Shown: positions 7,106 through 52,132 of the stretch, piece by piece
How positions within the stretch are numbered: the stretch's first letter is position 1
Layout of the letters: every line of letters begins with the position of its first letter
Assembly (NCBI GenBank): GCA_018714445.1
Contig: DVNK01000063.1
Coordinates: forward strand, 5,976-69,975
From: Candidatus Fimadaptatus faecigallinarum
GTDB taxonomy: Bacteria; Bacillota; Clostridia; Christensenellales; Aristaeellaceae
Direction of reading: 5' to 3'
Length of the DNA: 64,000 bases
The notes under the pieces: generated by a model
Database searches by the model: none
What the model saw: the letters and a program-made list of their open reading frames with translations, nothing else
What the model was told of the DNA's origin: nothing
Made by a program: the position numbers and the translations under genes

Positions 7106-7149
7106 ATCACCTTTGAGTACCTTTGCCGTAGAGCGTGGCAACGGAAATA

Positions 7150-7178: not shown

Positions 7179-7375
7179 TAGCTTGCAGAATATTTTTTTC
7201 GCTTTTTTGAGCGCTTGCACATGGCGCTACTACATTTAGCGCCTGACATCTCATCATATGGCGCGCTGCGCCGGGCTCACGCTGCCTGGAGCAATTTAAA
7301 GGCGCGAACCGCTTCCGGCGATCCGCGCCCCATTATATGCTTAGACGATATCAGTCGATGCTGAACCGCCTGGAT

Positions 7376-8626: not shown

Positions 8627-8657
8627 ATCCAATCGCCACCCTGTATCAAACTCCGGC

Positions 8658-9920: not shown

Positions 9921-10141
9921 CCCTTTCCAACGCCGCGCGGCGCAGATGCGCCGCGCGACCGTATGTGCTTTACGTGTCTATGGCTGTAATTGATTGATGC
10001 ATGCGCGTGCGCTCATACGCAACTGATCGCATGCGCATTGGTTGCGCGCTTACCGCATTTGCAGTTGTCCGCGTCTTCACCCGTGCGAACGCATGCGTTG
10101 AATATCGCCGCACGGGCGCATGCGTTTCACGCGTTCGCGGC

Positions 10142-12529
10142 TCACTCGAAGCTCTGCTCGGTGCGCGCGATTATCTCGTCCTGAAGCGCGCGCGACAGAT
10201 TGCGGAAGTGATCCGAATACCCCGCGACGCGCACTATCAGATCCTTGTAATCATCCGGATTGCGCTGCGCCGCCAACAGCGTCTCGCGGTCTATGACGTT
10301 AAACTGTATATGATGGCCATCCAGGTCAAAGTACGCGCGTATCAGGTCGGCCATGTGATCCAGCCCTGCCTCGCCCTTGACCACCGACGGCGTGAACTTC
10401 TGATTCAGCAGCGTGCCGCCAGTCATAAGGTGATCCATCTTGGCTGCCGAACGTATAACCGCCGTCGGGCCGCACGAGTCCGAACCCTGCGTCGGCGATA
10501 TGCCTTCGCTCAGCGGCTTGCCAGCGCGCCGGCCATTGGGCGTAGCCTGCATGACCTCGCCGAAATACACGTGGCACGTCGTCGGCAGCATGTTCACCCG
10601 ATACATGCCGCCGCGCATGTTGGGCCGGCCGCTTATCATGCCCAGGTAGTCGTGGAACACCTGGCTCATTATGGAATCGGCATAGTCGTCGTCGTTGCCG
10701 TACTTGGGCGCGCGCGTCTTGAGCAGCGCCAGCAGCCAGTCCTCGCCCTCAAAGTCATGCTCCAGTGCGTTTACCAGCCGCTCCAGCGTCACGTCGCCGC
10801 GCTCGTAAACATACTTCTTAATTGCCGCGAGCGAGTCGGTTATCGTGCCTATGCCCACGCCCTGTATATAGCTGGTATTGTAGCGCGCGCCGCCCGCGTT
10901 GTAGTCGCGCCCGCGCGCTATGCAGTCATTGGTTATGACCGACAGGAACGGCACCGGCATGTACCGCGCATACAGCGACTCAATCACGTTCGAGCCGCGC
11001 ACCTTGATGTCAATGAAATGCTTCATCTGCGCAGTGAACGCCGCGTACAGCTTGTCATAGCTATCCAGTTCAGCGAGCGTGCCCGTGTGCGGGCCCAACT
11101 GCTTGCCGGTGCGCGGATCCACGCCGTCGTGCAACGCCAGCTCCAGCATCTTGGGTATGTTGAAGTAGCCCGTCAGTATGTACGCCTCATTGCCGAATGC
11201 GCCGGTCTCGACGCATCCGCTGGTGCCGCCCTTGCGCGCGTCCGCCAGGCTCTTGCCGGCGTTCATCAGCTCCGAGATGATCGACTCGGTGTTGTAGAAC
11301 GCGGGCTGGCCCCAGCCCTTGCGCGAGATCTCGCACGCGCGCTTGAGGAACCGCCGCGGCGTCTTGCGGCTGATCTGCACGTTCGACGACGGCTGAAGCA
11401 GCTTCATCTCGTCCATGCAGTCCAGTATCAGGTAGCTGACCGGATTGACGCCGTCCTCGCCATCGGGCGTTATGCCGCCGGTGTTGATGTTGGCAAAGTC
11501 GGTATACGTGCCGCTCTCCTTGAGCGTTACACCTACCTTGGGCGGCGCGGGCTGATCGTTGAACTTGACCCACAGGCACTCCAGCAGCTCCAGCGCATGC
11601 GCATCGTCGAGTATGCCCGCCTCGGTGTCGGCCTTGTAGAACGGGTTGAGATGCTGGTCAAAGCGCCCCGGACTGTACGCATCCCACGGATTCAGCTCGG
11701 TCGTAACGCACAGATGCACAAACCAGTACATCTGTATCGCCTGCCAGAACGTGCGCGGCTTATGCGCGGGCACGACGCGGCAGTTTTCGGCTATCTGCTC
11801 GAGTTCCTTGCGGCGCGCCGGGTCAGCGGTCTGCCTGGCCATTTCGTCCGCCAACTCAGCATAGCGGCTGCCCATGACCATTATCGCGTCGCAAGCTATG
11901 CGCATCGCGCGCAGTTCCTCGGCGCGCTGGGACGCGGTAGGATCGTTCATGTAGTCCAGTGCCGCCAGCGCTGCGTCTATGTCGGCCTGGTAATCCAGGA
12001 ATCCCTTTTCGTATATCTTGTTGGAACCGACGGTGTGGCCCGGGCCGCGCTGTTCCATGAATTCGGTGAATATGCCCGCCGCGTACGCTTCCTTCCACTC
12101 GTCGGTCATGGCGCCCAGCAGTCGCGTGCGCATCGAGCGCTCCTTCCAGAACGGTATGACCGTGTCGCGCTGGTAGTCGAGCGCAGCCTCATCGACCTTG
12201 AACGATATCAGTTCGCGGTCGTTCATTATGTGCATATCCTCCAGAGTGTGGCAGCACAGCTCCGGGAACGTCGGCGCGACCTGCGGGCCCTCCGACTTTT
12301 CGCCCACTATCAGCTCGCCTTCGCCTATGTACAGCTTGCGCTGACGCATGTACTCGTAGAGCGCCGTCGCGCGCAGTTCGGGCACCGACATCGTGCCCTC
12401 GTACTTTTTATACGTCTCGGTCTCTATGCGCGCGCGCTCTATGCTTATGCGCGGCTGAGTGTCCACGCTAACCCGGCGCAGCTTGCGCACGCGCTCGTTC
12501 ATGCCTCTTTCCTCCATTTGACCGTTCAT
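10142..12529 (-). CDS. hypD: glycyl radical enzyme of the dehydratase/lyase class; probable trans-4-hydroxy-L-proline dehydratase
   Basis: 795 aa with the C-terminal glycyl radical motif IVRVAGYSDHF and a catalytic Cys-x-Glu loop (GGTSGCVETG). From memory it resembles characterised HypD along its whole length. It lies directly downstream of its activase, overlapping it by 4 nt. The best RBS-supported start is ATG at 12502 (MNERVRKL). Confidence 0.85.
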   Translation of the reverse strand: MNGQMEERGMNERVRKLRRVSVDTQPRISIERARIETETYKKYEGTMSVPELRATALYEYMRQRKLYIGEGELIVGEKSEGPQVAPTFPELCCHTLEDMHIMNDRELISFKVDEAALDYQRDTVIPFWKERSMRTRLLGAMTDEWKEAYAAGIFTEFMEQRGPGHTVGSNKIYEKGFLDYQADIDAALAALDYMNDPTASQRAEELRAMRIACDAIMVMGSRYAELADEMARQTADPARRKELEQIAENCRVVPAHKPRTFWQAIQMYWFVHLCVTTELNPWDAYSPGRFDQHLNPFYKADTEAGILDDAHALELLECLWVKFNDQPAPPKVGVTLKESGTYTDFANINTGGITPDGEDGVNPVSYLILDCMDEMKLLQPSSNVQISRKTPRRFLKRACEISRKGWGQPAFYNTESIISELMNAGKSLADARKGGTSGCVETGAFGNEAYILTGYFNIPKMLELALHDGVDPRTGKQLGPHTGTLAELDSYDKLYAAFTAQMKHFIDIKVRGSNVIESLYARYMPVPFLSVITNDCIARGRDYNAGGARYNTSYIQGVGIGTITDSLAAIKKYVYERGDVTLERLVNALEHDFEGEDWLLALLKTRAPKYGNDDDYADSIMSQVFHDYLGMISGRPNMRGGMYRVNMLPTTCHVYFGEVMQATPNGRRAGKPLSEGISPTQGSDSCGPTAVIRSAAKMDHLMTGGTLLNQKFTPSVVKGEAGLDHMADLIRAYFDLDGHHIQFNVIDRETLLAAQRNPDDYKDLIVRVAGYSDHFRNLSRALQDEIIARTEQSFE

Positions 12530-13365
12530 CCTCCAATCCTGACATCAGCGAAGCCCGCCGCGCGCCATTGGCCGGCAAGCTCTTCCATATGCTCATTTGA
12601 TGGCACTGCAAACTCATGCGCCTGATGGCCTTCCAGCCGCTCGCACTTGTCGCTGCCCAATCGGTGATACGGCAACAGGCTCACACGCACTGCCTTGACG
12701 TTTGCGCGCGCAAATTCTATCATGGCGCGCACCTCATCCGGAGTGTCGTTCACGCCCGGTATCACCGGCACGCGTATGTTGATCCGCGCGCCCGCCGCAC
12801 TCAGCCGCTTCAGATTGTCCAGTATCAGCGCATTGTCCACGCCCGTATAGCGCGCGTGTACCTGCGGATCCATGGCCTTTATGTCGTACAGAAACGTATC
12901 CGCATACGGCATGATCCGCTCGAACGCGCTCCAAGGCGCCAGTCCGCATGTATCTATGTTTACCGATATGCCCTCGCGCGCCAACCGCCGGGCAAGCTCT
13001 GCGACATAGTACATGTCCTGAGCCATGACCTCGCCGCCCGACAGCGTAACGCCGCCGCCCGATACCTCATAGCACTGCCTGTCGCGCGTAAGCAACCGCA
13101 TGAGCTCAGCCAGCGTATACACGCGTCCCACCAGTTCCCGCGCGCCGCTGGGACAGGTATCCTCGGTCAGCTCGCCCTCCCGGCACCGGCCGCAGCCTAT
13201 GCACCGGTCCTTGTAGAACATCCACTCGCGCTCAAAGCGCTGCCCCTCAGGGTTGTGGCACCACTCGCAGCTCAGCGGGCAGCCCTTGAAGAACACCGTC
13301 GTACGTATGCCGTCGCCGTCATGCAGCGAAAAACGCTGCAGGTCTATCACCAGAGGCGTATCCAA
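12526..13365 (-). CDS. glycyl-radical enzyme activating protein (radical SAM)
   Basis: 279 aa with the CPLSCEWCHNPEG radical SAM cluster motif, an additional Cys-rich ferredoxin-like insert (CIGCGRCREG), and GGGVTLSGGE. TTG start after AAGAGGTGAAGG. Confidence 0.93.
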   Translation of the reverse strand: MDTPLVIDLQRFSLHDGDGIRTTVFFKGCPLSCEWCHNPEGQRFEREWMFYKDRCIGCGRCREGELTEDTCPSGARELVGRVYTLAELMRLLTRDRQCYEVSGGGVTLSGGEVMAQDMYYVAELARRLAREGISVNIDTCGLAPWSAFERIMPYADTFLYDIKAMDPQVHARYTGVDNALILDNLKRLSAAGARINIRVPVIPGVNDTPDEVRAMIEFARANVKAVRVSLLPYHRLGSDKCERLEGHQAHEFAVPSNEHMEELAGQWRAAGFADVRIGG

Positions 13366-13694: not shown

Positions 13695-14834
13695 ATGCCG
13701 CCACTCTCACTTATGATAAAGCCCGTGTCCAGCATGTGCAACATGCGCTGCAAATACTGCTTCTACGCCGACGTGACCAGCCATCGCGAGACTAAATCAT
13801 ATGGCGTCATGTCAACAGATACGCTCGACAAGCTGGTGCGCCGTGCGTTCACTTACGCAGAGGGCAGCGTAAACTTCGCGTTCCAGGGCGGCGAGCCCAC
13901 GCTGGCCGGCATAGACTTTTTCCGACGCTTTGTCGAGCTTGAGCGCCGCTACAACTCGCGCCACATACAGGTCAACAACTCAATTCAAACCAACGCGTTC
14001 GAGCTGTCCGACGAGCTGATAGAACTGTTCCGGCAGCACCGCTTTCTGGTCGGCGTGTCGCTGGACGGCCCGGCGCAGATACACGACCTGATGCGCATAG
14101 ATGCGCGTGGAGCCGGCACGTACGCTACCGTGACCCGCAACATAGACCGCCTGCGCACTGCCGGCGTCGAGTATAACATACTCTGCGTCGTAAACGGCTA
14201 CATAGCCCGCGCGCCGCACGAGGTCTGGCGCGCGCTCGCACCGCACACATACCTGCAATTCATACCCTGTCTGGATGGCTTTGACGGGCAGACTCAGGAC
14301 TACTCGCTCAACGCGGCGGATTATCTGGGCTTTTTAAAGACCACGTTTGACCTGTACTACGAGGCGTACTTCCATCGCAAGTACGTTTCGGTGCGCACAT
14401 TCGACAACTACATAGGCATACTGCTGGGTCAAACGCCCGAAAACTGCGCAATGCAGGGCCGCTGTGGCGTGTATTATCTGATAGAAGGCGATGGCGGCGT
14501 ATATCCATGCGACTTCTACGTGCTGGACCGCTGGCGCATGGGCAATATCAATGCGTCCTCATTCCATGCGCTCTCGCGCAGTCCCATAGCCGACGAGTTC
14601 CGCACGCAGTCGCACTATACTTCACCCGAATGCACAGGCTGCAAATGGGCCGGGCTGTGTCGCGGCGGCTGCAAGCGGGACCGCGAGCCCATGATACCGG
14701 TGACCGATGCCGTAACCGGCGAGGTTCGCATGCGCCCAGGACTCAATCGCTTCTGCGAGGCGTTCAAGGAATTCTTTGAGTACAGTTATCCGCGCATGGA
14801 GGAGATCGCACGCGACATCGCCGCACGACGCTGA
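13695..14834 (+). CDS. radical SAM/SPASM maturase, anaerobic sulfatase-maturating enzyme-like
   Basis: 379 aa with the CNMRCKYCF radical SAM motif, GGEPTL, and a C-terminal SPASM cysteine cluster (CTGCKWAGLCRGGC). RBS AGGAGG. Confidence 0.88.
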   Translation: MPPLSLMIKPVSSMCNMRCKYCFYADVTSHRETKSYGVMSTDTLDKLVRRAFTYAEGSVNFAFQGGEPTLAGIDFFRRFVELERRYNSRHIQVNNSIQTNAFELSDELIELFRQHRFLVGVSLDGPAQIHDLMRIDARGAGTYATVTRNIDRLRTAGVEYNILCVVNGYIARAPHEVWRALAPHTYLQFIPCLDGFDGQTQDYSLNAADYLGFLKTTFDLYYEAYFHRKYVSVRTFDNYIGILLGQTPENCAMQGRCGVYYLIEGDGGVYPCDFYVLDRWRMGNINASSFHALSRSPIADEFRTQSHYTSPECTGCKWAGLCRGGCKRDREPMIPVTDAVTGEVRMRPGLNRFCEAFKEFFEYSYPRMEEIARDIAARR

Positions 14835-28637: not shown

Positions 28638-29513
28638 TCAGATTATTTCATAGCCCATTGCGACTATGTTGTCGTATGAGGTCTTGAGGCAATCGAACAC
28701 GTCCCTGCCATACAGGTCGTCCTGTTCAATGAAGAAGTACTTCGCGCCCGACTTCAGGCTCTGCTCGATTATCGCGGGCATGTCCAGCGAACCCTCGCCT
28801 ATCTCAGCAAACTGCACGACCCCCGCAAACGCACGCTGGAAGCCCTCCATCCGCGCCTTCATATCGCCCTTGGGCGCAGCGGTGAACACATCCGGCGATA
28901 TCTGACCGATGCGGTAGTCCTTCAGATGCACCAGATCGACCTTGCCCGCGTAGTCGGCCAACACCTTGACCGGATCGTAACCGCCGCGATGTATCCAGTG
29001 CACGTCCAATTCAAAGCCCATGTCCGGCACGTTTTCGCGTATTATGTCCAGCAGCGTCTTGCCGTCGAACTTATGGAACTCTACATGGTGGTTGTGGTAG
29101 TAGAGCTTTATGCCTTTGTCGGCCAGTTTGCGCGCGGCGACCTCGGCCATACGGCAAAAATGCATCGCTGCATCAAACGACGCCATGCAGTCAAACGGCA
29201 ACATGCCGATGCGTATGAACTGGCAGTCCAGCGCGCGGCAGTCCGCCACAATCTTGTCAAAATGAGTCGCCAGCGTCTCCTGGGGCATCGGGCCATTGGG
29301 CGCAACGCCCGCCGACAGCGACGCGATCTTGACGCCAAAGTCGTCCTGCGCGCGCTTCATCGCCGCAACGTTTTCGGCCGTCATGGGTATCTGCGATATC
29401 TCAACGCAGCGGTAGCCCAGCTCGCCCACGCGCTTTAGCGTCTCATACGCGCCCAGCTCGCCGAACTTGCCCTTGAGCATCATCGCCTGCACGCCTACTT
29501 TTATCTGCTTCAT
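28638..29513 (-). CDS. sugar phosphate isomerase/epimerase (xylose isomerase-like TIM barrel)
   Basis: 291 aa with the AP_endonuc_2-type pattern (GYRCVEISQ ... YHNHHVEF ... DLVHLKD ... EIGEG ... FFIEQD). Confidence 0.88.
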   Translation of the reverse strand: MKQIKVGVQAMMLKGKFGELGAYETLKRVGELGYRCVEISQIPMTAENVAAMKRAQDDFGVKIASLSAGVAPNGPMPQETLATHFDKIVADCRALDCQFIRIGMLPFDCMASFDAAMHFCRMAEVAARKLADKGIKLYYHNHHVEFHKFDGKTLLDIIRENVPDMGFELDVHWIHRGGYDPVKVLADYAGKVDLVHLKDYRIGQISPDVFTAAPKGDMKARMEGFQRAFAGVVQFAEIGEGSLDMPAIIEQSLKSGAKYFFIEQDDLYGRDVFDCLKTSYDNIVAMGYEII

Positions 29514-31167: not shown

Positions 31168-31533
31168 TCATTCCGCGCGCGGCACATTGCGCGTGGCAAC
31201 CAGGTCCACGCCGCTGCCGCAGATGTCGCGTATCACGACGTCGCCTATCTTGACCGGCGCGTCTATCACGCACGCGCGTATCGCGCTGAGCGCCTCGGGT
31301 ATCGATGCCTTTGAGATCGTATCGCGCGTCTTGACCGAGCACAGCGGCATTTTGCCGCCGCGCACGAACACGCTCGAGGTCACGGTGCGCATCGGATTGG
31401 TGAACTCCTGCCGCGCGTACTTGTCGCCGCGCGGACAGGTATTGCCGGTTACGGTAATCTCGTCGCCCTCGCGCTTAACGCTCAGGCGGCAGCCCATAGG
31501 GCACACTATACAGGTCATCTCACGGGTTTCCAT
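31168..31533 (-). CDS. DUF1667 domain protein (third component of anaerobic glpA-like flavoprotein sets)
   Basis: 121 aa with the N-terminal CIVCPMGC ... GNTCPRG cysteine motif typical of DUF1667. Confidence 0.85.
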   Translation of the reverse strand: METREMTCIVCPMGCRLSVKREGDEITVTGNTCPRGDKYARQEFTNPMRTVTSSVFVRGGKMPLCSVKTRDTISKASIPEALSAIRACVIDAPVKIGDVVIRDICGSGVDLVATRNVPRAE

Positions 31534-31546
31534 TGTGCGCGCCTCC

Positions 31547-32788
31547 TTACGCCTGCTCGACGCTTATCGATATGTCGCCGCCCTGGGGTATGTCGACGGT
31601 TACCTTCTCCATCTCGCCGGGCGTCATTATCTGCTTTTTGCGCGACACCAGCTCGCGGCCGTCGCACATGACCTTCAAACGCGCGGGCTTTACGACATTG
31701 CCCACGCGGAAGTACAGATCCACCTTGCCCGACGCCGCCGCGCTGAGCCGCTGGGGCACCACGTACCGCACCGCACCCGCAACGCTGACCTTGCGCGTCG
31801 ACGGAGCGGCTTCCACGCCGCTGAGCGCATACGCCGCCGCCGATTTGCCCGCAAGTATCGCCTCAGCCGATACGTTATCGACCAGGTCGTGCACATGCAG
31901 CACATTGCCACACGCGAACACGCCCGGCAGCGAGGTCTGTCGCGTCTCGTCCACGACCGCGCCCGACGTCACCGGATCCATCTCGACGCCTGCCGCGCGG
32001 CTGAGCTCGTTCTCGGGTATCAGGCCCACCGACAACAGCAGCGTGTCGCACTCCACGTCAAACTCGCTGCCCGGTATCGGCGCGCGCGTCGCCGGATCCA
32101 CTTCGGAGATCGTAACGCCTGTCACGCGCTCCCGACCATGTATCGCGGTCACGGTGTGGTTGAACTTGAGCGGTATGTCGTTGTCGACCAGGCACTGCAC
32201 TATGTTGCGGTTAAGGCCCGACGAATACGGCATCAGCTCGCACACCAGCTTGACCTGCGCGCCTTCCCACGTCATGCGCCGCGCCATTATCAGTCCTATG
32301 TCGCCCGAACCCAGTATAACTACCTTGCGGCCCGGCAGATACCCTTCCATGTTGCACAGCCGCTGCGCGCACCCCGCCGTGTACACGCCCGCCGGACGCG
32401 TGCCGGGTATGTTCAGCGCGCCGCGCGTGCGCTCGCGGCAGCCCATCGCCAGCACTACCGCGCCCGCCCTGAGCGTAAGCAAACCCCGGCTGGCGCACAT
32501 CGCCGTCACGAACCGCTCGGGCGATACCTCCAACACCATCGTGTCGGTCAATACCTCGATATCGGTCTTGTCCAGTTCGGCTATGAACCGGCCCGCATAC
32601 TCCGGCCCGGTCAGCTCCTCGCCAAAGAAGTGCAGTCCAAAGCCATTGTGTATGCACTGCTGCAGTATGCCGCCCAGGTCGTGGTCGCGCTCCAGCACCA
32701 GCACCTTTGCGCCGGCCTTATCGGCCTCCAGCGCCGTCGCCAGCCCCGCCGGGCCGCCGCCCACGACTATCACATCGTAGTCATTCAT
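31547..32788 (-). CDS. NAD(P)/FAD-dependent pyridine nucleotide-disulfide family oxidoreductase
   Basis: 413 aa with two dinucleotide folds (VIVVGGGPAGL; VVILGSGDIGL). Overlaps the upstream gene by 8 nt. Confidence 0.88.
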   Translation of the reverse strand: MNDYDVIVVGGGPAGLATALEADKAGAKVLVLERDHDLGGILQQCIHNGFGLHFFGEELTGPEYAGRFIAELDKTDIEVLTDTMVLEVSPERFVTAMCASRGLLTLRAGAVVLAMGCRERTRGALNIPGTRPAGVYTAGCAQRLCNMEGYLPGRKVVILGSGDIGLIMARRMTWEGAQVKLVCELMPYSSGLNRNIVQCLVDNDIPLKFNHTVTAIHGRERVTGVTISEVDPATRAPIPGSEFDVECDTLLLSVGLIPENELSRAAGVEMDPVTSGAVVDETRQTSLPGVFACGNVLHVHDLVDNVSAEAILAGKSAAAYALSGVEAAPSTRKVSVAGAVRYVVPQRLSAAASGKVDLYFRVGNVVKPARLKVMCDGRELVSRKKQIMTPGEMEKVTVDIPQGGDISISVEQA

Positions 32789-34232
32789 CGCACTTGACCT
32801 CCCCCAGCTTTCCGGCTACCATGTACGACCCGCCGCCGAACTTGGTCAGCTGCTCGGTGGGCCGATTCAGCTCGCGGCTGAGTATCTCCATCACGCGCGG
32901 CCCACAGAATCCGCCCTGGCACCGGCCCATGCCCGCGCGCGTGCGGCGCTTGACGCCGTCCACCGTGGTTGCGCCGCGGTGTATCGCGTCCACTATCTCG
33001 GCCTCGGTCACGGTCTCGCAGCGGCAGATTATGCGCCCATAGAGCGGGTTTTCCTTGTACGCCGCAGCGCGCTCGGCCGCGTCCATCAGCCGGAACGGCT
33101 TGGCATGGGGCCTGAGGTATACCGCGTCCGCACGCTCGGTCACATCCGCGCCGGCCTGACCCAGCAGTTCGCGCACATACTTGGCTATCGCCGGCGCGCT
33201 GGACAGTCCGGGCGAGCATATGCCCGCCGCATGTATTAAGCGTGGCTCCATTTCGCTGGGCCGTATTATGAAGTCGCCCGTGGACGGCTGCGCGCGCACA
33301 CCCGCGAACGAAGTTATCACCTGCCGCAGGTTGAGCGTGGGCACCGACTTGAGCGACAGGCGCTTGAGCTCGCTCATGCCTTCGGGCGTGGTGCGGGTGT
33401 CGGTTTTGTCGGTCATGTTCATGGCCGTGGGGCCGGCAAACACGTTGCCATCCACCGTCGGCGACACCAGCACGCCTTTGCCCAGCTCGTTGGGCGTCTG
33501 GAATATGACCGTGCTCACACACAGCGCCTGCTTGTCCATCAACATATACTCGCCCTTGCGCGGTGTTATCGTAAAGCTCGCATCGCCTATCATGCGCGCC
33601 ACATCATCGGCAAACACGCCCGCCGCGTTCACAATATAGCGCGCGCTGACGCTGGGCTTGCCCTCGAATTCGACTTCAAACCGCTCGCCGCTGTGAATCG
33701 CGCGCACGCGATGGTTGAGCAGTATATCAACGCCATTCGCCCGCGCGTTCTCACTCAGCGCTATCGTCAGCTCGTACGGACAGGTTATGCCCGCCGTGGG
33801 CGCCCACAGCGCCGCCGTCACATCGGGCGACAGCTTGGGTTCGAGTTCGCGCGCGCGTTCGCCGGTGATTATCTCAAGGCCCGGCACGCCGTTTTTGCGG
33901 CCGCGCTCGAGCAGATTGTGCAGCTCCCGCTCGTCCGACTCGCCAAACGCTATGACAAACGATCCTACCCGCATCAGCGGCACGCTCAGCTGCTCGCACA
34001 TCTCGTCGAACATTTCGTTGCCGCGCACGTTCAGCTTGGCCATCAAAGTGCCCGGCACGCAGTCGTAGCCGGCATGCACTATCGCGCTGTTGGCACGACT
34101 CGCACCCATGGCCACATCCTCGCACGCGTCGCACAGTGCCACGCGCAGCCCCGTGTGCGACAGCTCGCGCGCTATCGCGCAGCCGGTCACGCCCGCGCCT
34201 ATCACCAGCACGTCCAACCGGTCGGTATTCAT
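32781..34232 (-). CDS. FAD-dependent glycerol-3-phosphate dehydrogenase/oxidase-like protein with BFD-like [2Fe-2S] domain
   Basis: DAO-type N-terminus (DVLVIGAGVTGCAIA) and a C-terminal CRCE ... CQGGFC motif. Start refined to MNTDRL, 7 nt after GGGGGA. Confidence 0.85.
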   Translation of the reverse strand: MNTDRLDVLVIGAGVTGCAIARELSHTGLRVALCDACEDVAMGASRANSAIVHAGYDCVPGTLMAKLNVRGNEMFDEMCEQLSVPLMRVGSFVIAFGESDERELHNLLERGRKNGVPGLEIITGERARELEPKLSPDVTAALWAPTAGITCPYELTIALSENARANGVDILLNHRVRAIHSGERFEVEFEGKPSVSARYIVNAAGVFADDVARMIGDASFTITPRKGEYMLMDKQALCVSTVIFQTPNELGKGVLVSPTVDGNVFAGPTAMNMTDKTDTRTTPEGMSELKRLSLKSVPTLNLRQVITSFAGVRAQPSTGDFIIRPSEMEPRLIHAAGICSPGLSSAPAIAKYVRELLGQAGADVTERADAVYLRPHAKPFRLMDAAERAAAYKENPLYGRIICRCETVTEAEIVDAIHRGATTVDGVKRRTRAGMGRCQGGFCGPRVMEILSRELNRPTEQLTKFGGGSYMVAGKLGEVKCDE

Positions 34233-34259
34233 ACGCATTCCCCCGCTTTCAAATAATAT

Positions 34260-34308
34260 AAAAAAGCCCATGACAAACGCACCGCAACTGCGGCGTCTGC
34301 CACGGCTT
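34260..34308 (-). terminator. leader terminator between glpP and the glpA-like gene (candidate GlpP antitermination target)
   Basis: Imperfect long minus-strand hairpin (AAGCCGTGGCAGACGCCGC-agtt-GCGGTGCGTTTGTCATGGGCTT) followed by TTTTTT, about 25 nt before the RBS. Confidence 0.5.
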
Positions 34309-34384
34309 CTCTATATCTCTGCCATGTGGAGACTATTTTACGCCAGAATCTTTGCGCCCGGCAATATATTGGTTTACGTTATGG

Positions 34385-34969
34385 TTAAGATTCGCGCGAT
34401 TCGACAATTTCATCCCAAAGATACGCACAGCTCGTCGAAACCGCGACCGCGCCCGCGCTTAGCGCCTGCTCGACCTCAGCGCGCGTGGTTATCATGCCCC
34501 CGGCTATGACCGGCCGGCCCAGCTCCGCGCCAATGAAGCTTATCGCCTTGGGCACCAGTCCCGGCAGCACCTCTACCAGCGCACACGGCGAATTCTTGAG
34601 CAGCTTCACGCCGCTTACAAAGCTCTGGGAGTCCATCAGAAACATGCGCTGCACGGTCTCCAGGCCGCATTCGTCGGCGCATTTTATCAGCGGCGCGCGC
34701 GTCGATATCACGCCGTCGGGCCGTATCCGCGCCGCGCAATATGCCACCGCCGCCGCATCGCGCCCCAACCCTTCGCACAGATCCAGATGCAGCAACACCC
34801 GTTTGCCATGCTCATGCGCGCGCCCTACCCAGTCCTCCAACTCCAACAGCCGCCCGCCCAGCAGGAATATCACATTGGCATTTGACCGACACGCCGCCTC
34901 AAGCGACGCGCTGTCGCGCACCGCCGCTATGATCGGACGGGCTTTCAACCCATCGATAAACTCGCTCAT
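34385..34969 (-). CDS. glpP: glycerol-3-phosphate responsive antiterminator GlpP
   Basis: 194 aa with GlpP family features (RPIIAAVRD ... VIFLLGG ... HLDLCEGLGRD ... DGVISTR). Confidence 0.88.
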   Translation of the reverse strand: MSEFIDGLKARPIIAAVRDSASLEAACRSNANVIFLLGGRLLELEDWVGRAHEHGKRVLLHLDLCEGLGRDAAAVAYCAARIRPDGVISTRAPLIKCADECGLETVQRMFLMDSQSFVSGVKLLKNSPCALVEVLPGLVPKAISFIGAELGRPVIAGGMITTRAEVEQALSAGAVAVSTSCAYLWDEIVESRES

Positions 34970-37641: not shown

Positions 37642-37669
37642 ATTATACCATGCTGCGCTACTCTGTCAA
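37642..37669 (-). promoter_or_regulatory. sigma-A promoter of feoAB
   Basis: Minus strand reads TTGACA, a 16-nt spacer, then TGgTATAAT (extended -10). Confidence 0.55.
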
Positions 37670-37718: not shown

Positions 37719-37757
37719 ATGCGCCGCACAAAGGGCATATGCCCCATGTGCGGCGCC
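37719..37757 (-). terminator. intrinsic terminator after the acyl-CoA synthetase gene
   Basis: Long hairpin GGCGCCGCACATGGGGCATATGCCCTTTGTGCGGCGC followed on the minus strand by ATATTTTGT. Confidence 0.6.
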
Positions 37758-37783: not shown

Positions 37784-39490
37784 TCACGCGGTCTCTATCG
37801 CCGCGGCATCCTCCAGATGCAGATCGTGCACCGCCATCTCGCGCAGCTTGAACTTCTGTATCTTGCCGCTGGCAGTCATCGGGAAGGTGTCCACGAACAG
37901 CACGTAATGCGGCGCCTTGAAGCGGCTCAGGCCCTGCTTTACGAAGTCTATGAGCTCCTGTTCGGTCGCAGAGCCCTTCTCCTTGAGCACGACGTATGCG
38001 CAGACTTCCTCGCCGTACTTCTTGTCGGGCACGCCCACAACCTGCACGTCGCTGACCTTGGGATTGGTGTAGAGGAACTCCTCTATCTCGCGGGGGTAGA
38101 TGTTCTCGCCGCCGCGGATTATCATGTCCTTGAGCCGGCCGGTGATCTTGAAGTAGCCGTTGTCGTCCATGGTGCCTATGTCGCCGGTATGCAGCCAGCC
38201 TTCCTCGTCTATCGCCTGGCGAGTGGCTTCGGGCATCTTGTAGTAGCCGCGCATCAGGTGATATCCGCGCGTGCAGATCTCGCCCGGCACGCCGTGAGGC
38301 TGTTCGCGGCCGGTCTCGGGATCGATTATCTTGCCCTCGCAATGCGGCAGCAGGCGGCCCACCGTAGTCACGCGCAGCTCAAGCGGATCGGTCTTGCGGC
38401 TCATCGTCATGCCCGGCGAGCACTCGGTCTGACCATAGGTTATGACGATGTCGCGCATGTTCATCTCGTTGACGACGCGGCGCATGTAGTTTATCGGGCA
38501 CGGCGAACCCGCCATTATGCCGGTGCGCATGTGGCTCAGGTCAAACGACTTGAAGTCGGGGTGCTCGAGGTAGCCAATGAACATCGTAGGCACGCCGTGC
38601 ACAGCGGTGCAATGCTCGTCCTGGAGTATCTTGAGCACGCGGCCGGGGTTGTACAGATCGACGAACACCATCGTCGAACCATGCGTCAGGCAGGACTCCA
38701 CGCCCAGCACGCACCCGAAGCAATGGAACAGCGGCACCACTATGCACAACCGGTCCTCGGGCGTCAACTCCATGCAGTCGCCTATGCCCTGACCGTTGTT
38801 GGTTACATTGTAGTGCGTGAGCATGACGCCCTTGGGGAACCCGGTCGTGCCCGAGGTGTACTGCATGTTCACGACGTCCTGAGGCGTCAGCGACGTGGTG
38901 CGGGCCTGGTATTCCGCCTCGCTGACTTTATCGGCCATGGCGTATATGTCCTCGAAGTTATAGAAACCCTTGGGCGTATCCGCGCGCTCGCCGATGTATA
39001 CCAGGTTCTTCAGGTAGGGCAGGCGCTTGTTGTCCAGCGCGCCGGGCTCGGTTTCGTCAAGCCCCGGGCACAGCCCGCGCACATGCTCGACGTAGTTGTT
39101 GCCCTTGCACTCGCCTATCATGATGAGCGTCTGGGTGTCGGACTGGCGCAGCAGATACTCCAACTCAAACTGTTTGTAGTTGGTGTTGACCGTCACGAGT
39201 ATCGCGCCCATCTTGGCCGCCGCAAAGAACGTTATTATCCATTCGGGCACGTTGGTCGCCCATATGGCCACCTTGTCCTCCTTTTGGATGCCCATCGCCA
39301 TGAAGCCGCGCGCGACGCGGTCAGTCAGCTCGTCAAACTGCTTCCAGGTCCAGCGCTTGGCGCCCTGCGGGTATACCACGCACTCGTTGTCGGGTATCTC
39401 GCGCGCCCACTTGCGCAGCAGGTCGCCTATCGTCACGCTCATAAGCGGGCGCACATACTCTTCAGGCTGCATGTTATTTTCCTTATCCAT
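37784..39490 (-). CDS. AMP-dependent acyl-CoA synthetase (ANL superfamily, ACSF2/YngI-like medium-chain type)
   Basis: 568 aa with the AMP-binding signature YTSGTTGFPKGV, plus TGDIGTMDDNGYFKITGRLKD and GKIQKF. RBS AAAGGAGAGG. Confidence 0.92.
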   Translation of the reverse strand: MDKENNMQPEEYVRPLMSVTIGDLLRKWAREIPDNECVVYPQGAKRWTWKQFDELTDRVARGFMAMGIQKEDKVAIWATNVPEWIITFFAAAKMGAILVTVNTNYKQFELEYLLRQSDTQTLIMIGECKGNNYVEHVRGLCPGLDETEPGALDNKRLPYLKNLVYIGERADTPKGFYNFEDIYAMADKVSEAEYQARTTSLTPQDVVNMQYTSGTTGFPKGVMLTHYNVTNNGQGIGDCMELTPEDRLCIVVPLFHCFGCVLGVESCLTHGSTMVFVDLYNPGRVLKILQDEHCTAVHGVPTMFIGYLEHPDFKSFDLSHMRTGIMAGSPCPINYMRRVVNEMNMRDIVITYGQTECSPGMTMSRKTDPLELRVTTVGRLLPHCEGKIIDPETGREQPHGVPGEICTRGYHLMRGYYKMPEATRQAIDEEGWLHTGDIGTMDDNGYFKITGRLKDMIIRGGENIYPREIEEFLYTNPKVSDVQVVGVPDKKYGEEVCAYVVLKEKGSATEQELIDFVKQGLSRFKAPHYVLFVDTFPMTASGKIQKFKLREMAVHDLHLEDAAAIETA

Positions 39491-39535
39491 CCGGCACCTC
39501 TCCTTTAAATCCTACTGCTTGACCTGCGCGGCAAA

Positions 39536-39780
39536 TAAAAAAGCCTTTCATCTCTAATCAGAGACGAAAGGCTGAAGCCTTGCGCGGTACCACTCTGCTT
39601 GGGACATGCGTCCCAGCTCATACAGGCTCGCGGGACAATATCCCTAAGCCCTGATCCGATAACGGGGACCAGCCGCAGTTTTCTGTGCTCCGGAGCGAGC
39701 TTCAGCGCCCTTGAAGTACCGCCTCACACCAAACGGCGGCTCTCTGAACCCCTAATGCGCCTACTGTTCTCCATCAATGC
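39536..39780 (-). promoter_or_regulatory. T-box leader riboswitch, specifier CUC (Leu)
   Basis: Minus strand shows GATGGAGAAC-AGTA, the AG bulge AGAGAG, the distal loop TTTGGTGTGA, the specifier loop GAA-G-CUC-G (CUC at 39697-39699), the T-box AGAGTGGTACCGCG (39583-39596), and a terminator hairpin with U6 (39537-39572). Confidence 0.8.
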
Positions 39781-39818
39781 AATATGTTCAAACGCGCGCT
39801 GCGCACTTGATTGGAATA

Positions 39819-39847
39819 ATTATACGTATACCGCCGCCCGCTGTCAA
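39819..39847 (-). promoter_or_regulatory. consensus sigma-A promoter driving the Leu T-box leader
   Basis: Minus strand reads TTGACA, a 17-nt spacer, then TATAAT exactly. Confidence 0.65.
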
Positions 39848-39911: not shown

Positions 39912-39940
39912 TTGACAAACCTCACGCTTTAACATATAAT
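39912..39940 (+). promoter_or_regulatory. consensus sigma-A promoter of the DUF2974 gene
   Basis: TTGACA (39912-39917), a 17-nt spacer, then TATAAT (39935-39940). Confidence 0.65.
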
Positions 39941-40003: not shown

Positions 40004-41083
40004 ATGTACTGGCGTGGCGATGTGCCGTTGACCGTGGCGCCGTTCAACGCGGTCGACAACCTGGTGCTGTCACAGCTGGCCTACACCAGCTTTGACGGCG
40101 TAAAGCGCGACCGGCTGGGCGCCATGGCGCGCGCAAGGCTGCGGCCCGGCGACGTGCAGGGCAACGACCGGCAATTGCTCGAGTTGCTGGCCACGTCGCG
40201 CCGGCTGGGCGTTGCACGCGTGCGGCGCGCGGTCGAGCAGCTGGACGAGGAGCGTCAGATGCAGTTCGGCGCGCTGACGCTTGAGCTGGACGACGGCACC
40301 GCCTGCGTGGTATTCCGCGGCACCGACGCGACGCTGATAGGCTGGAAGGAAGATCTGAACATGTCGTTCGCCGACGAGATACCATCCCAGGCCGAGGCGG
40401 TGCGCTACTTAAACGACAGCACGCGCGATACCCGCAGGCCGCTACGCGTGATGGGCCACTCCAAAGGCGGCAACCTTGCGGTATATTCGTCGGTCAAGTG
40501 CCGGCCCGAAGTGCGCCGACGCATAATCGCAGTGTACAATAATGACGGTCCGGGCCTGAGCGAGCGCGCAATGGCCGAGCCGGGCTACGCGCGCATTGAA
40601 CGCCGCATACAGACGTTTCTGCCGCAGTCGTCGGTCGTGGGCATACTGCTGGGCACGGCCGAGCGCTACAAAGTCGTGCACGCCGAGGGCACGCTGGGCA
40701 TCGTCCAGCACGACCCATACGCCTGGCAGGTCCGGCGCGGCTGCTTTGAGTATGAACCCGGGCTCCGGCGCACAAGCCTGCTGGTCGACCGCACGATACG
40801 CGACTGGTTGGGAGGCATGACGCCCGAACGCCGCAAGGAGTTCGTCGACGCGGTGTACGATGTGCTCCATGCCACAAACGCCCGCACGCTGGACGAAATC
40901 GCCGCTGCATGGCCGCGCAATTCCATGGCGATCATATCCGCGCTGAGCCAGCTCGATCCCGAAAAGCGCCGTCATGTCCACGCCGCAATCGGCGGACTTA
41001 TATCCGCTTACGCGCGCAACAGATTCGCTCCCGGCGATGACAGCGCCACAAAACCCGATGAAACCACGCCGCCCGAAAAGTGA
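40004..41083 (+). CDS. DUF2974 (Mbeg1-like) alpha/beta hydrolase family protein
   Basis: 359 aa from the first ATG, with the nucleophile elbow GHSKGGN. The family-typical N-terminus (..NILDY.YWRGD) appears to extend upstream to an ATT at 39980, next to AGGAGG. Confidence 0.85.
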   Translation: MYWRGDVPLTVAPFNAVDNLVLSQLAYTSFDGVKRDRLGAMARARLRPGDVQGNDRQLLELLATSRRLGVARVRRAVEQLDEERQMQFGALTLELDDGTACVVFRGTDATLIGWKEDLNMSFADEIPSQAEAVRYLNDSTRDTRRPLRVMGHSKGGNLAVYSSVKCRPEVRRRIIAVYNNDGPGLSERAMAEPGYARIERRIQTFLPQSSVVGILLGTAERYKVVHAEGTLGIVQHDPYAWQVRRGCFEYEPGLRRTSLLVDRTIRDWLGGMTPERRKEFVDAVYDVLHATNARTLDEIAAAWPRNSMAIISALSQLDPEKRRHVHAAIGGLISAYARNRFAPGDDSATKPDETTPPEK

Positions 41084-42968: not shown

Positions 42969-43961
42969 TCAGCCTACCGCCGCTTCTGTGGTTATCTCGC
43001 AGACCAGCGTGTCATACTGCACATAGCACAGTATCGTTATCTCATCATAGCCGGTGTAGCGGAAGCTGAAGTCGGTGCCGGCGTTGTAATCGGTCACTAT
43101 CGCATCGGACGAGCTTTCAACATAGCTTTCCGAATACTTTTTGCCGTAGGTATGCTTGTCGATGATCTCGATATCGTCCATGTTCTTTATCGCCAGCCAT
43201 ATCGACGAGGCAACCTGCGCCACGCCGCCGCCCACGACCTTGACGCCCCGGCCATTTACCGCGGTTTCATAGCCGTTGGACGAGGTGCGCGGACCCACCA
43301 GGTCGTTGAACGAGAACACATCGTTGTGTCCAAGCGTCGTGCCGTTTATGGCGTCGGCCGCAAGCTTGATGTTGTTGCGCTTTGCATTGGTGCCATAGAT
43401 GCTGGTCGTGCCATAGCCGGCTATCGCGCTGGACTCGTCTATCGATACGCGCAGTTCGCCGTCGTCCAGCCAGGCGTATATCGTCAGCGTACGGCCCGTA
43501 TAATTTGTAAATGCAAAGTCAGTGCCGCTCTGCCAGTCCACAACCACGGCGTCATCGCCGCTGGACACATAGTCGCCGGTATACCGGTCGCCGTAGGTGC
43601 TCAGCTCGTCGATGTACACTCCGCTTATGCCGCGCACCGCCAGGTACAGCGTCGCCGCCACCTGACCCGTGCCGCCGCCGTAGACCTTGACCCCGCGACC
43701 GTTGAGCGCGCTCTCATAGCCGCGCTCCTTGGAGCGGTCGCCCACCACGTGGTTAAACGAGAACTGCTCGCCGTCCACAAGCGTATAACCGCTTATCGCG
43801 CCCGCCGCGCGCTCTATGTTGCGCACGCGCGCGCCCGACGACTCCACGTCCGTCGCCGCATAGCCGCTCGCCGCCAGCGCGCCCGACGCCGGCAGCGCCA
43901 GCGCCATAACCATGACCAGCACCAGCGCCGCACTTATGAGTTGGCGAATGCCCTTTAACAT
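42969..43961 (-). CDS. VanW family protein (two VanW-like repeats), exported
   Basis: Start refined to MLKGIRQLISAALVLVMVMALALPASG after GGGGGAG. The motif F.FN..VG.R....GY..A.NGRGVKV.GGG.(A)QVA.. occurs twice. Confidence 0.85.
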   Translation of the reverse strand: MLKGIRQLISAALVLVMVMALALPASGALAASGYAATDVESSGARVRNIERAAGAISGYTLVDGEQFSFNHVVGDRSKERGYESALNGRGVKVYGGGTGQVAATLYLAVRGISGVYIDELSTYGDRYTGDYVSSGDDAVVVDWQSGTDFAFTNYTGRTLTIYAWLDDGELRVSIDESSAIAGYGTTSIYGTNAKRNNIKLAADAINGTTLGHNDVFSFNDLVGPRTSSNGYETAVNGRGVKVVGGGVAQVASSIWLAIKNMDDIEIIDKHTYGKKYSESYVESSSDAIVTDYNAGTDFSFRYTGYDEITILCYVQYDTLVCEITTEAAVG

Positions 43962-44187
43962 GATATCTCCCCCCTGATGACTCATTTGCTGCTGCCAGCT
44001 TATGCCTATTTGACGCAACTTCACATTAACAGGTTTCACATCCGGACAATTTATATGATACTTTTTTCAATTCGCACTAAGCGCGCCCAATTTCTGATAG
44101 ACATTTAACAATTTTTAACCGTAAATGTCTTTGGACAACCACTACGGTACTTGTACTTTTTACTGGTTTGCGGTAAAATATAGTTGA

Positions 44188-49721: not shown

Positions 49722-51116
49722 TTACGCGCGCCGCACCTTGGGGCCCTGAGGCGTGTCCTCCAGCACAAAGCCGCGCTCGGTTATCAGGTCGCGCAGCCGG
49801 TCGGACTCGGCCCAGTTCTTTGCGGCACGCGCCTGTACGCGCTGCTCGACCAGCGCCTTTATGTCATCGGGCACCGCATCGCTCTCGCGCGACATTATGC
49901 CCAGCACGCCGGTCAGTTCCTTGAGCGTGTCCAGCATGCCCTTTATCGCCGCACGCGCGCTGTCCGCATTCAGCGAGGTGTTGCCATCCTTGATGAGTTC
50001 GAATATCACGCCCACCGCGTCTGCGGTGTTCAGGTCGTCGTCCATGGCCTCATCAAAGCGCTCCACGGCGTTGCGCGCGCGCTCCATGAGCGCCGTCTCA
50101 TCCGCGTTCAGCTCGCGCTCGGGCGCGTGGTCCAGCAGGAACAGCCAGTTGTCGCGCGCCGTGTACATGCGCTCAAGAGCCGAACGCGCCTGCTCGATCA
50201 TCTCCTTTGAGAAGTTGACTGGCGAGCGGTAATGCGCCGACACCATGAACATCCGCACCGCCTCGAGGTCGTATTCCTTGGATATGTCGCGCACCGTAAA
50301 GAAGTTGCCCAGCGACTTGGACATCTTCTGATTATCGACGTTGATATGGCCATTGTGCATCCAGTAGTGCGCAAACGGCTTGCCGGTCGCACCCTCGGAC
50401 TGCGCGACCTCGTTCTCGTGATGCGGGAAGAGCAGATCCTTGCCGCCGCAGTGTATGTCTATCGTCTCGCCCAGGTACTTCATGCTCATCGCAGAGCACT
50501 CAATATGCCAACCAGGTCGGCCCATGCCCCAGGGACTCTTCCAAGCCGGCTCGCCAGGCTTTTGCGCCTTCCACAGCGCAAAGTCCATCGGATGGCGCTT
50601 GCTGTCGTCGACGTCTATGCGCGCGCCAGCCTCAAGGTCCTCCAGATTCTGGCCCGACAGCTTGCCATAGTCGGGATACGCCTGCGTATCGAAGTACACA
50701 TCGCCATTTACCTCGTATGCAAGGCCCTTCTTTTCGAGCTTGCGGATGAGTCCTATTATATCGCCGATGTGGCGCGTCGCACGCGGATGTACCGTCGCGC
50801 GGCGAATGCCCAACGCGTCGGCATCCTTGAAGTACTCCTCAATGAAGCGGTCGCCAAGCTGCTCCACAGTGATGCCTTCCTCATTGGCGCGCTTGATCAT
50901 CTTGTCGTCGATGTCGGTGAAGTTCTGCACGAACGTCACCTCGTAGCCGCGGTACTCAAGATAGCGCCTGAGTATATCGAACATTATGAATGGCCGCGCA
51001 TTGCCGATGTGAAAATAGTTATACACAGTCGGACCGCACGAGTATATGCGCGCCTTGCCGGGCTCTATCGGCACAAACTCCTCCTTGCGCCGGGTCTGGG
51101 AATTGTAGATCTTCAT
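49722..51116 (-). CDS. cysS: cysteine--tRNA ligase
   Basis: 464 aa class I synthetase with HIGNAR (HIGH) and KMSKS motifs. Confidence 0.96.
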   Translation of the reverse strand: MKIYNSQTRRKEEFVPIEPGKARIYSCGPTVYNYFHIGNARPFIMFDILRRYLEYRGYEVTFVQNFTDIDDKMIKRANEEGITVEQLGDRFIEEYFKDADALGIRRATVHPRATRHIGDIIGLIRKLEKKGLAYEVNGDVYFDTQAYPDYGKLSGQNLEDLEAGARIDVDDSKRHPMDFALWKAQKPGEPAWKSPWGMGRPGWHIECSAMSMKYLGETIDIHCGGKDLLFPHHENEVAQSEGATGKPFAHYWMHNGHINVDNQKMSKSLGNFFTVRDISKEYDLEAVRMFMVSAHYRSPVNFSKEMIEQARSALERMYTARDNWLFLLDHAPERELNADETALMERARNAVERFDEAMDDDLNTADAVGVIFELIKDGNTSLNADSARAAIKGMLDTLKELTGVLGIMSRESDAVPDDIKALVEQRVQARAAKNWAESDRLRDLITERGFVLEDTPQGPKVRRA

Positions 51117-51119
51117 ATA

Positions 51120-51833
51120 TCAATCATCCTCTCCTGAAACTTTGAGTTCCCTAATTGGACAGTCCGCATCCGGAGCGCCGCAATGCGCACATGCGCCGCG
51201 CTCTATTATGCTGGCAATGCGCGCGTCCGCGCGGACCAGCTCGCCCCGCAGCGCCTGCAACTGTTCCATGACCGGATCGGGCAGGTGTATCTGATCCATG
51301 TCCGACGGCGCGCGCTCGGCCTTGGACGCAACGACACGCCCCGGATTGCCCACGACCGTCGCGCCCACCGGCACATCCTTGAGCACTATCGAACCTGCGC
51401 CGATCTTGGCGCCGTCGCCTATCGTAAGCGACCCCAGCACCTTGGCGCCTGCGCCGACCATGACGCGATTGCCCAGCGTGGGATGGCGCTTGCCGGTCTC
51501 CTTGCCGGTGCCGCCCAGCGTAACGTCTTGATACAGCGTCACGTCATCGCCTATTTCAGTGGTCTCGCCTATCACCACGCCCATGCCGTGATCTATGAAC
51601 AGCCTCGCGCCTATGCGCGCGCCGGGGTGAATCTCTATGCCGGTCTTTTTGCGGGTGCGCTGGCTGACTACCCGCGCCAGCAGCTTCATGTCGTGCTGCC
51701 AGAGCCAGTGCGCACGCCGGTGGCGCCGCACCGCCTTGAACCCCGGATAGCACAGCATCACCTCCAGCGCCGAGCGCGCCGCCGGATCGCGCGTGAGCAC
51801 TGCAGCTATGTCGTCTTTGAGCTGTTTAAACAT
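51120..51833 (-). CDS. cysE: serine O-acetyltransferase
   Basis: Start refined to [19 protein letters not shown] after GGGGAGG. Left-handed beta-helix hexapeptide repeats ([22 protein letters not shown]). Confidence 0.92.
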
Positions 51834-51855
51834 CGAATTCCTCCCCAAGCGGATC

Positions 51856-52119
51856 AAAAAACGGACCGTCGCCTCATCTCCAGAGGCGGCGGTCCGCGGT
51901 TCCACTCTGATTCAAGCAGATATCTGCTCATCTCAACGAAGGCCTCGTCAGCCCTCACACATATAACGGTGTTCACCGGCCGCGCCTGTGCCCGCATGTG
52001 GGTTGAGCGCGACGGCTCCCGGGTGCACTTGAGCAAAGCGCTTCCCTGCGGCGGCTTTCAGCCGGTGACCACCGCTCTCTTTCGGGCCGTATGCATTGCC
52101 TACTTTCCCGTTCATCGCC
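51856..52119 (-). promoter_or_regulatory. T-box leader riboswitch, specifier UGC (Cys), controlling cysE-cysS
   Basis: Minus strand shows GGCGATGAACGGGAAAGTA, AGAGAG, the specifier loop CAA-G-UGC-A (UGC at 52025-52027), the T-box AGAGTGGAACCGCG, and the terminator GGACCGCCGCC ... GGCGACGGTCC followed by TTTTTT. Confidence 0.85.
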
Positions 52120-52132
52120 TTTTGACAGTCCC

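Follow-up and report, generated by a model that had tools for sequence, protein, structure and literature searches.

Features of the leader and the ligase gene

In a stretch of 64,000 nucleotides from the genome of Candidatus Fimadaptatus faecigallinarum (hereafter the window; positions 5,976 to 69,975 of contig DVNK01000063.1 in assembly GCA_018714445.1), a gene on the minus strand (37784-39490) encodes an acyl-CoA ligase of 568 amino acids that belongs to the ANL superfamily and is of the YngI/ACSF2 type, as judged from Pfam, NCBIfam and sequence motifs. This gene is preceded on the same strand by a T-box leader (39557-39786). In T-boxes, the anticodon of an uncharged tRNA pairs with a specifier codon in the leader and its NCCA end pairs with a UGGN bulge, whereby the antiterminator is stabilised. 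A scan with the Rfam model RF00230 matched the leader over the full length of the model (model positions 1-219 of 219) with a score of 96.0 bits, compared to a gathering threshold of 93, and an E-value of 8.3e-20 for the 64-kb window. The match begins about 30 nt downstream of a sigma-70-type promoter with the sequence TTGACA-17-TATAAT (39819-39847, minus strand), which agrees with the consensus at 12 of 12 positions. Both the promoter and the leader had been proposed in an initial annotation of the window, and both were recovered here. The leader is a canonical transcriptional T-box riboswitch that is predicted to be specific for tRNA-Leu.

The covariance alignment identified in Stem I of the leader the GA/K-turn motif UGAUGGAGAAC, AGUA, the AGAGAG bulge and the distal loop UGGUGUGA, all of which fall in conserved columns of RF00230 with high posterior probability. 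The distal loop of Stem I (GGUGNRA) is the part of T-boxes that contacts the tRNA elbow. Stem III is present and followed by the antiterminator, and the Stem IIA/B element CGG...CCGUUA is kept as well. Compared to the Rfam consensus, Stem II is mostly deleted and only ACAG...CUG remains of it. The initial annotation had called the leader complete, which is correct for each of the elements that it had named, and for their places, but not for Stem II. It is known that Stem II is absent from some functional T-boxes.

The conserved T-box sequence AGAGUGGUACCGCG (39583-39596, minus strand) includes the UGGU (39592-39589, minus strand), the predicted partner of the ACCA-3' end in tRNAs that have the discriminator A73. 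When folded alone, the antiterminator (39559-39597, minus strand; -13.7 kcal/mol) adopts the canonical arrangement of two helices flanking a 7-nt bulge, UGGUACC. The intrinsic terminator (39532-39573, minus strand) was found both by a terminator scan and by folding of the leader. It consists of a 14-bp hairpin (39573-39542) followed by UUUUUUAUUU, and this hairpin is the dominant structure in both the minimum-free-energy and the centroid fold of the leader. One strand serves as 3' arm in the antiterminator and as 5' arm in the terminator, so that the two hairpins are mutually exclusive. The UGGU bulge and the terminator with its U-tract, which the initial annotation had listed too, are both in place.

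In the specifier columns, the covariance alignment places the leucine codon CUC (39697-39699, minus strand) in the context GAA-G-CUC-G. A second T-box leader of the window, which precedes cysE-cysS (51879-52124, minus strand; RF00230 score of 85.1 bits, E-value of 5e-17), had been suggested as an internal control for this assignment, and it proved suitable for this purpose. The sequence CAA-G-UGC-A of the Cys leader and the sequence GAA-G-CUC-G of the Leu leader occupy identical model columns, and the bulge reads UGGA in the Cys leader and UGGU in every Leu, Ile and Val leader examined. The score of the Cys leader is below the gathering threshold of 93 bits, so that a default Rfam scan misses it. 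Downstream of it lie cysE (51120-51905) and then a gene for a 464-residue protein (49722-51116), which is read as cysS following its name in the initial annotation. The specifier column contains CUC or CUG in all 21 related leaders that control a ligase of the present type, whereas the reading frames adjoining the CUC/CUG frame yield mixed amino acids across the leaders. The leucine call, as first proposed, thus holds because the middle frame alone gives one amino acid across the leaders. For the same reason, a specifier GCU (Ala) or UCG (Ser) was ruled out. No tRNA-Leu gene was found in the 64-kb window, where the sole tRNA gene is one for tRNA-Thr(GGU), or in five related loci that were scanned.

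The ligase gene has a ribosome-binding site, AAAGGAGAGG, at 39506-39497 on the minus strand. Its product matches the Pfam families AMP-binding (PF00501; 326 bits) and AMP-binding_C (PF13193; 76 bits), and a search for the ANL core motifs A3, A5, A7, A8 and A10 found YTSGTTGFPKG, YGQTE, HTGD, GRLKD and SGKIQK in the translation. Of the NCBIfam models, PRK12583 ('fatty acid CoA ligase family protein') fits best, with 774 bits, and the next family reaches 442 bits. As the score for PRK12583 is below the cut-off of that family, we call the predicted enzyme YngI/ACSF2-like rather than a member of PRK12583. The 25 top-scoring families displayed for the ligase do not include MbcS (NCBIfam NF047394), a methylbutyryl-CoA synthetase family to which we will return.

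After the stop codon of the ligase gene, a hairpin followed by AUAUUUUGU (37721-37757, minus strand; -34.3 kcal/mol, z-score of -5.6) was detected, and none of 200 shuffled sequences folded as stably. This hairpin probably marks the end of a single-gene unit. The downstream genes feoA and feoB have a promoter of their own (37642-37669, minus strand), with 12 of 12 consensus matches and an extended -10 TG, and the divergent Mbeg1-like gene located upstream (40004-41083) likewise has its own promoter with 12 of 12 matches (39912-39940, plus strand). In view of the 3' hairpin and these separate promoters, the ligase gene appears to be the sole gene under the control of the Leu T-box, in line with the initial annotation. 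Together with the promoter of the leader, these two, which lie within 2.3 kb, bring the number of perfect sigma-70 promoters to three in 3.5 kb.

Recurrence of the T-box and the ligase in other genomes

Homologues place the organism in or near the Christensenellales. A scan for homologues of the ligase, with one genome per species, returned 80 loci; here and below, loci are referred to by number where needed. A T-box is located directly before the ligase gene in L001, L004, L005, L006, L007, L009 and L010, and also in L081 from the cultured bacterium Maliibacterium massiliense, where the T-box scores 111.5 bits; the protein identity of the ligases is 61-91%. If the window is counted, this direct group comprises nine leaders, seven with CUC and two with CUG, all of which carry UGGU. 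The mean column identity of the leaders in the group is 49%. The genes that flank the T-box and the ligase differ among the genomes (feoAB, the gene for ribosomal protein L19, genes for TauE exporters, and others), which implies that T-box and ligase travel together as a unit. In L004-L006, L009 and L010, no conserved operon partner was found beside the stand-alone unit, and the neighbouring genes are unrelated.

A different gene architecture was observed in Oscillospiraceae. Here the orthologues, with 53-55% identity to the window ligase, carry a xylose-isomerase-like TIM barrel fused at the N-terminus, which brings the proteins to 836-838 residues; more than 100 Oscillospiraceae protein clusters with such TIM-barrel::ligase fusions are listed. 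The fusion gene is preceded by a LeuA-like gene that overlaps it by 4 nt, indicative of translational coupling. The LeuA-like protein contains HMGL-like and LeuA_dimer domains and reaches 304-319 bits on the 2-isopropylmalate synthase model, for which the cut-off is 532. In 12 genomes, the gene pair is preceded by a Leu T-box, with CUC as the specifier in four of them and CUG in eight.

The TIM-barrel domain is fused to the ligase in L062, for example (2161-3000), and is encoded by a separate gene in L011 (4663-5529), which starts 7 nt after the ligase gene. The L011 protein and the fused domain are 36% identical (E-value of 9e-53). The best database matches of the TIM barrel are very weak, namely fructoselysine 3-epimerase with 46 bits, and PDB entry 3wqo, MJ1311. 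An AP_endonuc_2 gene in the window (28638-29513) was considered as a counterpart of the fused domain and rejected, because similarity between the two is absent.

Two Oscillospiraceae metagenome contigs, L085 and L086, were examined with 10-kb flanks (1-10004 in each case). In both, an operon consisting of a Leu (CUG) T-box, the LeuA-like gene and the TIM::ligase fusion gene is divergent from two further operons. The second operon has an Ile (AUC) T-box followed by a gene for an HTH-cupin-MbcS-like ligase, and the third has a Val (GUC) T-box followed by genes for a second HTH-cupin-MbcS-like ligase, a ParA/CbiA-like protein, and a 2-oxoacid:ferredoxin oxidoreductase of four subunits in the order delta, alpha, beta, gamma. 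With 551.7 versus 399 bits, the score of the alpha subunit is above the NCBIfam cut-off for VorB. For the Ile- and Val-controlled ligases, MbcS is the top family, but they remain below its cut-off (422-440 versus 850 bits). Leu, Ile and Val specifiers thus precede three different ligases, by which the expression of each ligase is predicted to be tied to the cognate amino acid, and the cluster of L085 and L086 looks like a complete module that would salvage branched acids into amino acids. The HTH and cupin module is situated at the N-terminus of the MbcS-like ligases (L085, 2794-5082 and 5537-7801; L077, 4953-7349), and the fusion of such a DNA-binding and ligand-sensing unit to an acyl-CoA ligase suggests a second regulatory layer, at the protein level.

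Orthologues were also found outside the Clostridia. In Virgibacillus flavescens (54% identity), the locus comprises genes for a TetR regulator, an acyl-CoA dehydrogenase, the ligase and a biotin carboxylase, then a gap and an HMG-CoA-lyase-like gene, while the locus of Desulfobacterium encodes a TRAP transporter (DctM), an acyl-CoA dehydrogenase, the ligase, an enoyl-CoA hydratase and a carboxyltransferase. Judged by their gene content, these loci are predicted isovaleryl-CoA catabolic clusters of the liu/yng type, with the ligase at the point of entry. The initial annotation had placed yngI of Bacillus subtilis in an operon related to leucine and isovalerate, and this agrees with the placement of both orthologues between genes for an acyl-CoA dehydrogenase and genes of the methylcrotonyl-CoA-carboxylase type. 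In Methanothrix, orthologues with about 54% identity (L022, 1594-2799; L049, 1693-2880) are divergent from a gene for a class I/II aminotransferase, an arrangement that fits a route from an acid via a 2-oxoacid to an amino acid in methanogens. Altogether, the ligase family appears to be repeatedly tied to isovaleryl-CoA or to the formation of amino acids.

A proposed role in the salvage of isovalerate into leucine

Taken together, we consider it probable (about 60%) that a shortage of leucine switches on an isovalerate-CoA ligase, by which isovalerate is salvaged to form leucine. According to this model, charged tRNA-Leu would fail to stabilise the antiterminator when leucine is plentiful, so that the 14-bp terminator would form and transcription would stop before the ligase gene. 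When leucine is short, uncharged tRNA-Leu with the anticodon GAG, or a wobble partner, and with A73 would pair with CUC and with the UGGU bulge, which would lock the antiterminator and allow transcription of the ligase gene. The ligase would then convert exogenous isovalerate, its presumed substrate, to isovaleryl-CoA. A VOR-type 2-oxoacid:ferredoxin oxidoreductase (VOR) would be expected to turn this product into 4-methyl-2-oxopentanoate by reductive carboxylation, and an aminotransferase could finally convert 4-methyl-2-oxopentanoate to leucine. As neither of these partner enzymes was found in the 64-kb window, most of which was annotated, they remain candidates in this organism.

The proposed physiology, from isovalerate to leucine, is supported by the gene neighbourhoods described above, which add strong comparative evidence. 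A further argument comes from the selectivity of MbcS. The purified enzyme of Staphylococcus aureus has KM values below 10 µM for 2-methylbutyrate and isobutyrate, and it is poor with isovalerate, for which the KM is above 500 µM (PMC10026030). Since MbcS handles isovalerate poorly, this acid would by exclusion be left for the Leu-controlled YngI-like ligase. That rumen bacteria build isovalerate into leucine is well established, according to PMC7356843, which cites Allison (1962, 1966). The same source indicates that isobutyrate is converted to valine and 2-methylbutyrate to isoleucine in parallel pathways, by carboxylation and subsequent amination. It seems likely that the three ligases and the VOR under T-box control represent the genetic basis of these Allison pathways.

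Several observations weigh against the salvage of isovalerate into leucine. Isovalerate is the presumed substrate on the grounds of gene context. The ligase stays just under the cut-off of PRK12583 (774 versus 832 bits), and no close solved structure was found for it, the best PDB match being a generic fatty-acyl/feruloyl-CoA synthetase with 257 bits. Indeed, no member of this ligase subfamily with a solved structure or a defined substrate was found, and the role of YngI in B. subtilis has been described as unresolved, with an undefined substrate (PMC10988940). Neither an oxidoreductase nor a branched-chain aminotransferase (ilvE) nor leu genes were found among the open reading frames annotated across most of the 64-kb window. 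In addition, no T-box was found at the Christensenella orthologues (L002, L003 and L082; about 65% identity), and none, at E-values up to 1e-6, at eight complete Oscillospiraceae fusion loci that have kept the gene pair (L052, L057, L059, L064, L065, L067, L071 and L075; about 550-750). A ninth fusion locus scanned without a T-box match, L070, is cut off at a contig end. The gap upstream of the T-box-less gene pair is mostly about 170-200 nt, and about 80-100 nt in L065 and L071. The T-box-less Oscillospiraceae lineages must therefore regulate the gene pair in another way. Lastly, the coupling of the ligase to the LeuA-like protein and the TIM barrel is not explained by a simple scheme of a ligase plus a VOR.

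This coupling figures in two other explanations. It is conceivable, but unlikely, that the leucine switch is real and that the ligase activates another acid (isobutyrate, acetoacetate and medium-chain acids would be examples) for the LeuA-like enzyme or for another leucine route without reductive carboxylation. At every Oscillospiraceae locus, whether or not a T-box is present, the ligase is translationally coupled to the LeuA-like gene, and it is either fused to, or located beside, an orthologous TIM-barrel protein. Moreover, one source names one of the homologue matches 'Acetoacetyl-CoA synthetase', and human ACSF2 is considered to act on medium-chain acids. However, neither a LeuA-like nor a TIM-barrel partner was found near the window ligase, the liu-type clusters with their carboxylate transporter and acyl-CoA dehydrogenase fit the entry of isovalerate better than the activation of an end product, and, given the selectivity of MbcS, the layout of three ligases under three T-boxes maps onto the three branched acids. 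We are more doubtful still that the Leu-controlled ligase catalyses the first step of a new route to leucine, rather than simply feeding a VOR. Since the ligase is tied in Oscillospiraceae to a TIM-barrel enzyme and to a divergent LeuA-like Claisen-condensing enzyme, a direct condensation of the branched acyl-CoA is possible; for example, isovaleryl-CoA and glyoxylate could yield 3-isopropylmalate, so that neither LeuCD nor reductive carboxylation would be needed.

An anabolic destination other than leucine also has to be considered, because isovaleryl-CoA could prime the synthesis of iso-odd branched-chain membrane fatty acids. The cell would then not have to break down scarce leucine for the primer, and the ligase might spare leucine in the way of S. 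aureus MbcS. The absence of an oxidoreductase gene beside the stand-alone ligase of the window is in line with this view, and bacteria of the Christensenella type are rich in the iso-C15:0 fatty acid. The example of MbcS shows, furthermore, that the scavenging of branched acids for lipid primers is real (PMC10026030). Nevertheless, we rate a role in lipid priming as rather improbable, since in Oscillospiraceae the Val operon combines its ligase gene with the genes of a VorB-type oxidoreductase and the LeuA-like gene belongs to the Leu operon, both of which hint at the synthesis of amino acids, and since the Methanothrix orthologues adjoin an aminotransferase gene. Archaea are known to make no fatty-acid membrane lipids, which also speaks against lipid priming. 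Finally, the T-box could be decaying or misplaced, and the ligase unrelated to leucine and brought under its control by an accidental rearrangement. One might think so because the RF00230 score exceeds the gathering threshold by 3 bits, Stem II is reduced, a phage-type integrase gene is located about 3.5 kb away, and some close orthologues lack the T-box. Yet no damage is seen in the promoter, the specifier loop, the T-box core, the antiterminator or the terminator. Moreover, a T-box, always with a Leu codon, is paired with the ligase in 21 other genomes and in two gene architectures, despite the divergence of the leaders (mean column identity of 49% in the direct group) and the different gene neighbours. 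An accident of this kind is thus very improbable, and we favour the salvage of isovalerate into leucine over each of these explanations.

Additional observations in the window

About 3.5 kb upstream of the ligase gene, a gene for a phage-type integrase (42969-44039, minus strand; neighbours in L084, 5153-6549) is accompanied by a small HTH_17 gene (excisionase-like). The pair adjoins a gene for a peptidoglycan-binding protein and two genes that have no assigned function, and this region may be a small integrated element. The region 10142-13365 (minus strand) encodes a glycyl-radical enzyme (PFL-like, 795 residues) and a radical-SAM activase, and is followed by an open reading frame with radical-SAM and SPASM domains (13695-14834, plus strand). 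The open reading frame at 10001-12625 (plus strand) overlaps the PFL-like gene on the opposite strand, and probably either its start is wrong or it is spurious. In the region 31168-34969 (minus strand), a glpP-type glycerol-3-phosphate antiterminator gene is found together with an operon for a GlpA-like FAD/BFD oxidoreductase, a Pyr_redox_2 protein and a DUF1667 protein. The operon of the GlpA-like oxidoreductase is located just downstream of the ligase gene in Maliibacterium (L081, 11780-14948), which shows that synteny is partly kept.

Relation to known systems and implications

The RNA described here is an ordinary member of the T-box class, and the new point is the class of the controlled gene together with what this implies. 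The known Leu T-boxes, such as those of leuS and ilv-leu in B. subtilis and of leuA in Geobacter (PMC2700814), have the same RF00230 layout, the specifier CUC that is read by tRNA-Leu(GAG), the UGGU bulge and the mechanism of termination and antitermination. The leader of the window differs from these in its reduced Stem II, and in that it controls an acyl-CoA ligase rather than a tRNA synthetase, de novo biosynthesis or a transporter. The initial annotation had pictured the ligase as standing in for, among others, a biosynthesis gene. This stands as far as the gene class is concerned, which is indeed new, but if the ligase acts in salvage it would itself supply the amino acid, and the logic of the T-box would be conventional. 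Full-text literature searches yielded no description of a T-box that controls a gene for an acyl-CoA ligase or for a 2-oxoacid oxidoreductase, although Vitreschak (2008) or Gutierrez-Preciado (2009) may contain an earlier mention. The survey of T-boxes by Wels et al. (2008) nowhere mentions CoA (PMC2494555). Likewise, the searches found no paper that assigns the activating enzyme or the regulation of the isovalerate-carboxylation route.

Several known systems share features with the present one. MbcS of S. aureus is also an ATP-dependent ANL ligase, which scavenges exogenous branched short-chain acids (PMC10026030), and MbcS-like ligases share the Oscillospiraceae cluster with the orthologue of the window ligase, where they are under Ile and Val T-boxes. 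However, the window ligase belongs to another ANL branch, nearest to PRK12583, than MbcS and Acs; S. aureus MbcS feeds lipid synthesis and has not been described as T-box-regulated (PMC10026030). B. subtilis YngI, encoded in the liu-type yngJIHGFE cluster, is from the same ligase subfamily, and the window ligase shows about 54-57% identity to Bacillaceae orthologues. In contrast to the window ligase, which stands alone under a Leu T-box, the yng-type genes form a catabolic setting that has a TetR-type regulator close by and lacks a T-box. Induction by leucine starvation would thus imply an anabolic or salvage direction for the window ligase. The Allison pathway of rumen bacteria has the same proposed physiology; it was defined by isotope labelling, whereas the present work offers candidate genes and a regulatory logic. 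A comparable idea is found in the salvage of aryl acids by an indolepyruvate oxidoreductase and an AMP-forming ligase, as in Geobacter iorAB-paaK, which has a conserved leader listed under tryptophan (PMC2700814), and where a CoA ligase and a 2-oxoacid:ferredoxin oxidoreductase rebuild an amino acid from a carboxylic acid under control linked to an amino acid. That system differs in the class of amino acid, in its enzymes and in its regulatory element.

The T-box can be regarded as a built-in functional label, which marks the ligase as being required at times when tRNA-Leu lacks its amino acid. Branched-chain volatile fatty acids are needed by cellulolytic bacteria of the rumen and by many anaerobes of the gut, and isotope studies of the 1960s showed that these acids are carboxylated to give leucine, valine and isoleucine. 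Together, the T-box of the window and the cluster with three T-boxes provide candidate genes for each branched acid in a 60-year-old pathway, one of which is found in the cultured Maliibacterium massiliense. If the proposed role is correct, T-box regulons would extend from tRNA synthetases, de novo biosynthesis and transporters to the salvage of carboxylic acids, and the large and poorly annotated family of YngI/ACSF2-like 'AMP-binding proteins' would gain a function. This would also allow better metabolic models of the cross-feeding in gut and rumen between bacteria that ferment amino acids and those that degrade fibre.

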